Origin: a virus
Virus genome (UHGV): UHGV-1685692
Length of the DNA: 43,420 nucleotides
Reading direction: 5' to 3' (one strand)
Below the pieces are notes generated by a model. It ran no database searches. It was not told the DNA's origin and saw nothing but the letters and a program-made list of their open reading frames with translations. How positions within the stretch are numbered: position 1 is the stretch's first letter; each line of letters opens with the position of its first letter. The position numbers were made by a program, and so were the translations under genes. Shown piece after piece: positions 29,326 through 29,973 of this stretch.

Positions 29326-29973
29326 ATGAGAAAACTATTACTACCGTTATTATTTATGGCTGGGACTGTTAATGCAGCATCAAGCGTAAAGGAGATTTGT
29401 ACCGATTATACGAAATACCTTGGGCACGTTTACGGCTTTGCTGTCAGTCAAGATGAATCCATGCGCAAGAAGTTACTGTCAGATATGAAACGCCTTAAAC
29501 TTTCTGAAGCGATGGTGCAGCAAGAACTGTATAAAGTCGCAACCAACGAAAATGCTAAATATCAATATTCTCGCCTGTTAAATCCCGACGCAAACGAGAT
29601 CAATCGAAGCTCTTTCGATTATATGGTAAAGGCATGCGAAACCGCTCCTGATTTTGCTATTCCTAGCTGGGGTGTGCTGGTGGCGAGCAATGCCGTTAAT
29701 AAAGAAGACGTTGGAAGAAATGGCATTGATTCAATCAGAAACTCCCCGGGAATGCGCCATCAAAACGTTCAGGGTACGCTTGAAGAACGGGCCAGGGGGC
29801 CGGGTACAAACTCCCCAATGGGAAACCTCTCCCCGGAGGAATTGCAAGAGTATAACCAACGGATGGAGCAGTATGAGAAAGCTGCACGCGAAAAAATGGA
29901 ACAACAAAAAAACGGATCTCTTAATACTTTCCAGCAAGGTTTAAAAGCGCTTAATTTACCCTATGAATGGTGA
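29326..29973 (+). CDS. secreted/periplasmic protein with Sec signal peptide; candidate superinfection-exclusion (Sim-like) protein
   Basis: GGTGAGG RBS, ATG 29326; MRKLLLPLLFMAGTVNAASS signal peptide; about 216 aa (about 24 kDa); contains IRNSPGMRHQNVQGTLEERARGPGT, shared with the sit product. Confidence 0.5.
   Translation: MRKLLLPLLFMAGTVNAASSVKEICTDYTKYLGHVYGFAVSQDESMRKKLLSDMKRLKLSEAMVQQELYKVATNENAKYQYSRLLNPDANEINRSSFDYMVKACETAPDFAIPSWGVLVASNAVNKEDVGRNGIDSIRNSPGMRHQNVQGTLEERARGPGTNSPMGNLSPEELQEYNQRMEQYEKAAREKMEQQKNGSLNTFQQGLKALNLPYEW

Follow-up and report, generated by a model that had tools for sequence, protein, structure and literature searches.

A secreted SimA-family protein of a P1-like phage shares a linear motif with the Sit tape-measure protein: a possible decoy in superinfection exclusion

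Exclusion by the Sim system of bacteriophage P1 was reportedly described by Kliem and Dreiseikelmann in 1989 and by Maillou and Dreiseikelmann in 1990, and how Sim-type superimmunity blocks DNA entry has been an open question since the 1980s. Two prophage-encoded envelope exclusion proteins, Ltp of TP-J34 and gp15 of HK97, block DNA entry in a tape-measure-dependent manner; Ltp targets the tape-measure protein of its phage and, to our knowledge, no sequence in common with a tape-measure protein has been reported for either. The P1 Sim protein (SimC) is a periplasmic, signal-peptide-bearing exclusion protein that acts after adsorption and before the DNA reaches the cytoplasm (PMC8546580, in part general knowledge), and the sim region is one of the eight hypervariable regions of P1-like phage-plasmids (PMC9603915). 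A precedent for tape-measure-directed exclusion is provided by phage T4, whose Imm protein binds the tape-measure protein gp29 (bioRxiv 10.64898/2026.03.06.709160). The subject here is a SimA-family gene, termed gene X, of the UHGV virus genome UHGV-1685692 (the window, the whole stretch of 43,420 nucleotides analysed), which lies at the sim locus and whose predicted secreted product shares a short motif with Sit, the tape-measure and injection transglycosylase protein encoded downstream. The original prediction, made from the sequence alone, had proposed that X is a composite copy of two Sit segments and a possible decoy with a Sim-like function.

Gene X, sit and the segments common to both are arranged in the window as follows.

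29314..29320, plus strand: ribosome-binding site GGTGAGG of gene X, 5 nt before the ATG at 29326, read from the sequence
29326..29973, plus strand: gene X, full-length SimA-family protein, 215 aa plus stop
29326..29376, plus strand: Sec-type signal peptide, X residues 1-17, MRKLLLPLLFMAGTVNA, predicted cleavage before ASS, from sequence features only
29383..29709, plus strand: all-helical N-domain, X residues 20-128, AlphaFold2 predicted local distance difference test score (pLDDT) above 90
29698..29829, plus strand: Sit-like linear module, X residues 125-168, core N139-T161 NSPGMRHQNVQGTLEERARGPGT, in a predicted disordered linker
29833..29970, plus strand: long C-terminal helix, X residues 170-208, and protein end LNLPYEW, from AlphaFold2
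32726..36466, plus strand: sit, tape-measure/injection transglycosylase, 1246 aa, from Pfam SLT and the P1 annotation
35852..35980, plus strand: Sit motif unit 1, residues 1043-1085, core NGRGMRREVVQGTLEERARGKGT from nt 35891, from BLASTP, predicted disordered
36062..36115, plus strand: Sit motif unit 2, partial duplicate GIDGLFDKLRNSPGMRKN, found in P1-type Sits

Comparison of X with Sit by BLASTP identifies a shared segment with 23/47 identities (E 8e-9), together with a second high-scoring segment pair between X and the downstream Sit copy (E 0.006), and finds nothing similar beyond this 45-residue module. The similarity is reciprocal at the level of the two families, as the Sit family profile phrog_2533 matches X residues 129-171 at E 1.2e-7 and the X family profile phrog_3933 matches Sit residues 1045-1086 at E 5e-4. 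The peptides on which the original prediction was built are found where it placed them, with IRNSPGMRHQNVQGTLEERARGPGT at nt 29734-29808 of X, the core of unit 1 in Sit and LRNSPGMRK from nt 36089. A motif profile of 50 positions, comprising X and Sit of the window, four other X homologues and three Sit fragments, was compared with 1.84e9 representative proteins and produced 11 matches at E<=1e-3, which are Sit-like tape-measure proteins (1081-1367 aa), X-family proteins, fragments of either and one spurious low-complexity tandem repeat. This search shows that the motif is not common in unrelated proteins and rules out a widespread low-complexity element; along with the BLASTP and reciprocal profile matches, it supports the shared ancestry that had been proposed for the motif, as well as the specificity of the motif to Sit and the secreted X family. 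The features of Sit as a whole protein (SLT domain, long helical ruler and conserved C-terminal plug region) were not found in X, the only confident Pfam SLT match being that in Sit.

Within Sit, the Pfam SLT domain occupies residues 864-973 (E 2e-27) and the motif starts ~70 residues past it, ahead of a strongly conserved C-terminal stretch of ~110 residues. Across Sit C-termini that are 32-78% identical, the G-M-R, G, R and G positions of the motif are among just 26 invariant columns, and X possesses every one of the motif columns concerned (G219, M220, R221, G227, R232 and G235 in the numbering of the Sit C-terminus alignment). Among X homologues, N-x-x-G-M-R is likewise invariant or nearly so. 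A very distant Sit-like protein of 1367 aa (P0047) has two GMRHQV units. Judged from these alignments, the motif is an ancient, constrained feature of the Sit tape-measure family. An AlphaFold2 model of Sit residues 841-1246, built from a shallow alignment, contains a confident SLT domain, after which everything, the motif included, has a pLDDT below 50, with the exception of one helix near the C-terminus that reaches ~58.

The Sit protein of the window is also longer than that of P1 (1246 aa vs 1140 aa). Two repeats account for this, a tandem duplication of 297 bp close to the N-terminus (1.9 copies with 81% matches; window 32828-33397) and a 51-bp exact-type duplication that encodes EANAKEI[TA]PELKAPVNS twice (window 34866-34969). 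Provided that the repeats do not loop out, the longer tape-measure protein predicts a tail that is ~16 nm longer, taking 1.5 A per residue.

The proposal that X fuses two separate Sit segments is not supported. P1-type Sit holds two units, a full unit 1 (...DLVNKFMNGRGMRREVVQGTLEERARGKGT...) followed ~65 residues on by a partial unit 2 (...GIDGLFDKLRNSPGMRKNN...), and the second unit is present in none of six Salmonella/Klebsiella-type Sits examined. The Salmonella and Klebsiella phages examined instead have one unit only, with its two halves contiguous, FLNAPGMRHQAVQGTLAERAYGKGT in L081 (also NAPGMRHQAVQGTLAERAYGKGT) and FLSAPGMRHQVVQGTLAERAYGRGT in L049. RNAPGMR is the most frequent X allele in 60-odd related loci, the RNSPGMR of the window is confined to a small clade, and the X allele does not follow the NSPGMR vs NARGMR state of Sit unit 2. 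A composite origin from two Sit segments is rejected on the X alleles and on the contiguous single-copy Sit units. The common E. coli X allele agrees with the Sit unit of L081 at 24/39 positions and with its own Sit unit 1 at 19/39. The simplest reading of these patterns is that one ancestral unit, N-x-x-G-M-R-H-Q-x-V-x-G-T-L-x-E-R-A-x-G-x-G-T, occurs once in X and was partly duplicated in P1-type Sit. Each P1-type Sit copy would then have retained different ancestral residues, and the exact 7-residue match of X to unit 2 would be a coincidence of an A/S polymorphism.

Nucleotide similarity between the two genes, described as visible in the original prediction, proves to be weak, with blastn of X against sit returning only 24 nt at 92% identity (E 0.05). 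The 23-codon core of the motif comprises 7 identical codons, 10 with synonymous differences and 6 that encode another amino acid; 17/23 core residues are therefore identical, and 10 of those 17 are specified by different synonymous codons. Recent DNA transfer between sit and X is rejected on the weak blastn match and these synonymous differences. As synonymous sites are largely randomised whilst the peptide has been kept, the comparison points to an old split followed by purifying selection on the motif in both genes.

The start of gene X is placed at ATG 29326 in preference to an alternative ATG at 29299, on account of the GGTGAGG sequence 5 nt upstream and of Salmonella and Klebsiella homologues that begin at the equivalent methionine. 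The N-terminus has, in agreement with the periplasmic targeting originally proposed, the sequence features of a Sec signal peptide (MRKLLLPLLFMAGTVNA followed by AS), namely a K/R n-region, a hydrophobic core and V-N-A at -3 to -1, and these are kept across homologues. The sequence lacks a lipobox cysteine (MAGT, not L-A-G-C), and neither it nor the AlphaFold2 model, for which an 18-sequence alignment was the input, contains a hydrophobic helix past the signal peptide. C25 and C104 of the N-domain are invariant in the homologue alignments, as expected for a predicted periplasmic disulfide. Structure comparison gave no known fold match for the N-domain, and X is no structural homologue of any virion protein. 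The linker that holds the motif (residues 130-166) has a pLDDT of 47-58 and is predicted to be disordered. The protein ends in an LNLP[YF] motif (residues 209-215, nt 29950-29970, LNLPYEW), which is kept in the Salmonella homologue P0009 (LNLPYEW) and in the distant P0051 (...SLNLPFKLY); a speculative parallel is that between the terminal Y-x-W and the aromatic C-terminal signature by which periplasmic PDZ proteases recognise outer-membrane proteins. The whole of X aligns with phrog_3933 (E 9.8e-137, residues 1-215 to profile positions 1-213 of 213). A Pfam PTPlike_phytase match to the N-domain (26.6 bits, below the 27-bit cut-off) was judged spurious, since C104 is not followed by a CX5R-type arginine.

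Homologues of X form 28 clusters, some of them named 'simA domain protein', and were found only on ~90-100 kb contigs of P1-like or D6-like phage-plasmids (Escherichia, Salmonella, Klebsiella). In PLSDB, 267 plasmids match X and 84 of these cover at least 80% of it; the remaining matches represent either a 163-aa allele or the P1-type stump described below. The 163-aa allele is common and terminates just past the motif (...ERARGPGVAP and stop), so that the N-domain and motif are retained; its GPGVAP end resembles the GPGVPAP of L077 Sit. All members of the family have the N-domain and N-x-x-G-M-R-[HQT]-Q in common. Past this joint, two kinds of tail occur, one being the Sit-like half V-[QE]-G-[TS]-[LM]-x-x-RA-[RY]-G and the other consisting of Cys-bounded hairpin modules unrelated to it; some members also have a terminal coiled coil with LNLP[YF]. 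The two kinds are found again in a distant lineage, where X has another genomic position (P0045, P0048, P0049 and P0050 vs P0051). Some database entries of X (e.g. P0008, 205 aa) are frameshifted from about residue 140 into an overlapping +1-frame open reading frame (window 29654-29944, plus strand); these are probably sequencing or assembly errors, or pseudogenes.

The window as a whole belongs with the P1-like phages (Punavirus) and is 99% identical to Escherichia phage vB_EcoM-Ro157c2YLVW, whereas P1, P7, SJ46, RCS47 and D6 are partial matches. Gene names were transferred from the P1 annotation, and the surroundings of X are as follows.

27637-28680, minus strand: ant, by transfer of the P1 annotation
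Between ant and the C1 operator of gene X: icd/c4 region, by transfer of the P1 annotation
29213..29229, minus strand: C1 repressor operator (= P1 Oc4/Op51), one mismatch to ATTGCTCTAATAAATTT, aligned with the annotated P1 operator
29232..29261, plus strand: predicted weak sigma-70-like promoter, TTGTAT-18-TCTAAT (= predicted P1 PsimA), placed from P1 through the 96% identical alignment
30025..30501, plus strand: gene Y, second secreted protein, YfjT-like, 158 aa, phrog_3429 at E 3e-80
Between gene Y and sit: pmgC, tub and pmgB, by transfer of the P1 annotation

Gene X thus occupies the position of simA-simB-simC in P1, between the c4/C1-operator region and pmgC. As for P1 simA, it is divergent from the c4 promoters and C1 operator, which lies ~97 nt upstream of the X start codon, and is upstream of pmgC-tub-pmgB-sit; the same layout is found in L077, L079 and L081. 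Identity to P1 is 96% over the upstream DNA and the initial ~140 nt of X, and P1 SimA (52 aa, or 43 aa from the second methionine) corresponds to the X signal peptide plus the first ~26 mature residues, about 43-46 residues in all. Homology between X and P1 ends at about nt 29436-29466 (P1 L001 3836-3866), after which simB and simC follow in P1. These alignments identify P1 simA as the stump of a gene that is intact in the window, its body having been displaced by simB and simC, and X, conversely, as the intact form of P1 simA, an accessory, non-structural gene of the hypervariable sim (superimmunity) locus. The Sim-like role originally guessed for X was consequently better placed than its author knew, X lying in the P1 sim locus itself, and is in part supported. 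At the junction (29436-29466) there is a short common AATCCATGCG, the ATG of which is the P1 simB start codon. The C1 operator consensus ATTGCTCTAATAAATTT has five sites in the window (8167-8194, an overlapping inverted pair; 11454-11470; 27542-27558; 29213-29229), vs 0.34 expected by chance.

The locus varies in composition, and all products of the architectures below have signal-peptide-like N-termini.

X and Y (Y being a 155-168 aa secreted, YfjT-like protein): the window and most lineages
X (163 aa), a Y-like protein and a 325-394 aa protein: several E. coli loci
X and a SimC homologue (34% identical to P1 SimC): L046
X stump, SimB and SimC: P1

In L046 (10001-11450, IMGVR_UViG_2695420521_000002), a full-length X of 212 aa is followed by a SimC homologue of 256 aa that replaces Y, an arrangement which indicates that X and SimC can coexist at one locus. 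The second architecture is represented by L033 10001-12400 and similar loci (L030, L032, L034-L042), with a 163-aa X, a Y-like protein of 168 aa and then the 325-394 aa protein. Homologues of gene Y follow X in L033, L045, L047 and L049 at 29-60% identity, and counterparts have precomputed matches to PF27224 YfjT. Gene Y has a signal-peptide-like N-terminus and a conserved C-terminal EDGCLK[RK] motif, and may act together with X. Between lineages, X is 59-62% and Y 33-60% identical, vs 75-82% for the neighbouring PmgC and Tub.

The motif also varies in parallel in some X and Sit pairs. APGMRHQ is present in both X and Sit of L081, L049 and L051, the distant L085/L087 phage has an unusual G-S-M-A-[ED]-RA in both proteins, L077 has G-x-G-V in both, and P0028, an X found on a short contig, carries AERAYGKGTSTAMGN, a sequence of the Salmonella Sit type. 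These parallels are no more than suggestive of co-evolution between X and Sit.

These features permit a mechanism to be proposed. X would be exported to the periplasm of the lysogen through its Sec signal peptide, where the flexible linker that follows its compact helical domain would present N-x-x-GMRHQ-x-V-x-G-T-L-x-ERA-x-G-x-GT. The same motif is located just past the transglycosylase domain of Sit, in a part presumed to be the first to enter the periplasm at tail ejection. As a mimic, X would occupy the partner of the Sit motif, be it a component of the host envelope, a different tail protein that is ejected or further copies of Sit (X acting as a poison subunit), and the DNA entry of superinfecting P1-like phages would then stall. 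Export, expression in the lysogen, the exit order of Sit, the binding partner and the exclusion phenotype are all elements that we infer. Exclusion of related phages by mimicry of the Sit motif is accordingly put forward as a plausible but tentative possibility, favoured over the alternatives below, and its fuller form, in which P1-like prophages secrete a soluble periplasmic self-mimic of the tape-measure motif that keeps out related genomes by competing as a decoy or by acting as a poison subunit, as a rather doubtful one. In its favour, the motif is significant, reciprocal and limited to Sit-like tape-measure proteins and the X family. The use of different synonymous codons for 10/17 shared residues argues that amino-acid identity has been held by selection rather than by recent transfer, and the motif is predicted to be disordered in X as in Sit, as expected for a linear binding motif. 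From the locus comparisons, X sits at the P1 sim locus, precedes a SimC homologue in L046, and keeps its N-domain and motif in the 163-aa allele. Also in favour are the invariant GMR, G, R and G of Sit homologues and the invariant or nearly invariant N-x-x-G-M-R of X homologues, the predicted signal peptide and non-structural nature of X, the faster divergence of X and Y than of PmgC and Tub within a hypervariable region, the G-S-M-A variant common to X and Sit of L085/L087, and the precedents of T4 Imm and TP-J34 Ltp.

A number of observations weigh against this mimicry. The apparent co-evolution is not significant in a permutation test of six lineages, in which 44/720 permutations reach the observed identity sum (p about 0.06) and 76/720 the BLOSUM sum, and a metagenome scan with a further protein search yielded no additional independent lineages in which X could be paired with Sit. 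The motif of E. coli X is closer to foreign Sits than to copy 1 of its own Sit. Several X lineages keep N-x-x-GMRHQ only, the V-x-G-T-L-x-ERA-x-G half having been replaced by unrelated Cys-containing tails, which implies that this half is dispensable for the general role of the family. PADLOC models gave 0 families for X, as for Y, at E up to 1, and no NCBIfam model matches X. The PsimA-equivalent of X is a predicted promoter that is weak and abuts the C1 operator, and a consensus promoter scan did not pick it up at 29232..29261. Sit is not resolved in the published P1 cryo-electron microscopy structure (PMC12810830), which gives neither its exit order nor the periplasmic exposure of its C-terminus.

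Other explanations for the shared motif have to be set beside mimicry. The motif might be an address tag for some part of the envelope (peptidoglycan or a protein of the inner membrane or periplasm) that serves localisation only in both Sit and X, with the activity of X residing in the helical N-domain or the swappable C-terminal tail and directed, for example, at host fitness, lysis timing or defence against unrelated phages. Such a tag would fit with the N-domain, which is better conserved and better folded than any other part of X, with the modular build of the family, in which a constant N-domain and N-x-x-GMRHQ joint are combined with interchangeable tails (Sit-like half, Cys hairpins or coiled coil with LNLPYEW), and with the absence of the second motif half from many members. 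It is nevertheless unlikely, for a general envelope tag would be expected in other secreted proteins, whereas the motif is found only in Sit-like tape-measure proteins and X, and the sim locus position and the pairing with a SimC homologue in L046 point to exclusion.

X might also be an inhibitor akin to T4 Spackle (Sp). X would here bind the incoming Sit transglycosylase domain in the periplasm and block cell-wall penetration, the Sit-like segment copying a stretch that packs against or regulates that domain. The distance of ~70 residues between SLT (864-973) and the Sit motif (1043-1085), the nature of X as a small helical predicted periplasmic protein with two invariant cysteines and the inhibition of gp5 lysozyme by Sp in the periplasm, which is general knowledge, are consistent with this idea; it is, however, distinctly improbable, given that in the low-confidence, shallow-alignment AlphaFold2 model of Sit 841-1246 the motif is not packed on the SLT domain and is predicted to be disordered. 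Finally, a functionless recombination relic, a piece of sit once captured into a cargo gene, might be suspected because the sim locus is a recombination hot spot (PMC9603915 and the locus comparisons) and because the G+C content of the motif segment (0.54) is near that of the sit motif region (0.55) and above that of the remainder of X (0.40-0.42). Against this stand the largely randomised synonymous sites alongside 17/23 identical residues, and the persistence of the motif in X lineages whose N-domains are just 38-60% identical; a neutral disordered linker would have diverged already, and this origin is very improbable.

As a predicted secreted protein whose conserved linear motif is shared with the tape-measure protein only, X offers a concrete handle on the block to DNA entry by Sim-type superimmunity, as well as on what the ejected P1 tape-measure protein binds in the periplasm. 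The motif probably marks an interaction site of Sit, for which X would be a natural competitor. The annotation of P1 simA is also corrected to that of a truncated remnant of a 215-aa gene, which is intact in ~1/3 of the P1-like plasmids in PLSDB. If true, mimicry would represent a new way for prophages to exclude relatives and would explain the variability of the sim locus, the swappable C-terminal tails of the X family would tune which phages are excluded, and the X-Y pair would be the ancestral 'sim' function of this phage group, with P1 simB and simC as a later replacement.

Among the described systems, the closest to X is P1 SimA (P1_gp043, 'putative superimmunity accessory function'), which resembles it in position, upstream DNA (96%), signal peptide, first 43-46 residues and membership of phrog_3933, but is a stump of 43-52 aa, whereas X is intact with N-domain, Sit-like motif and C-terminal helix. 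P1 SimC has the locus and a signal peptide in common with X, and a SimC homologue follows X in L046; in contrast to X, it lacks the Sit-like motif, and homology between the two was not found with hhalign (probability 0.07-0.1%, E 0.68), by which this relationship is ruled out. T4 Spackle, which neutralises a tail-borne cell-wall hydrolase, is likewise a small helical periplasmic protein, and fold similarity to X was not detected in the structure comparison. Ltp of TP-J34 is a lipoprotein and gp15 of HK97 a membrane protein, whereas X has neither a lipobox nor a transmembrane segment beyond its signal peptide. T4 Imm parallels the proposed function of X as a phage-encoded exclusion protein of a contractile-tailed phage that acts on a tape-measure-dependent DNA translocation step. 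However, Imm is an integral protein of the inner membrane, its binding site in the tape-measure protein is a helical-bundle domain, and it has no resemblance to this target; X is predicted to be soluble and contains a segment copied from the tape-measure protein. Literature searches found no link between SimA and Sit and no tape-measure mimicry in exclusion. What is already known of the family is its SimA-domain name, to which no function is attached, and mimicry would, if true, be a mechanism new to tape-measure-directed superinfection exclusion.

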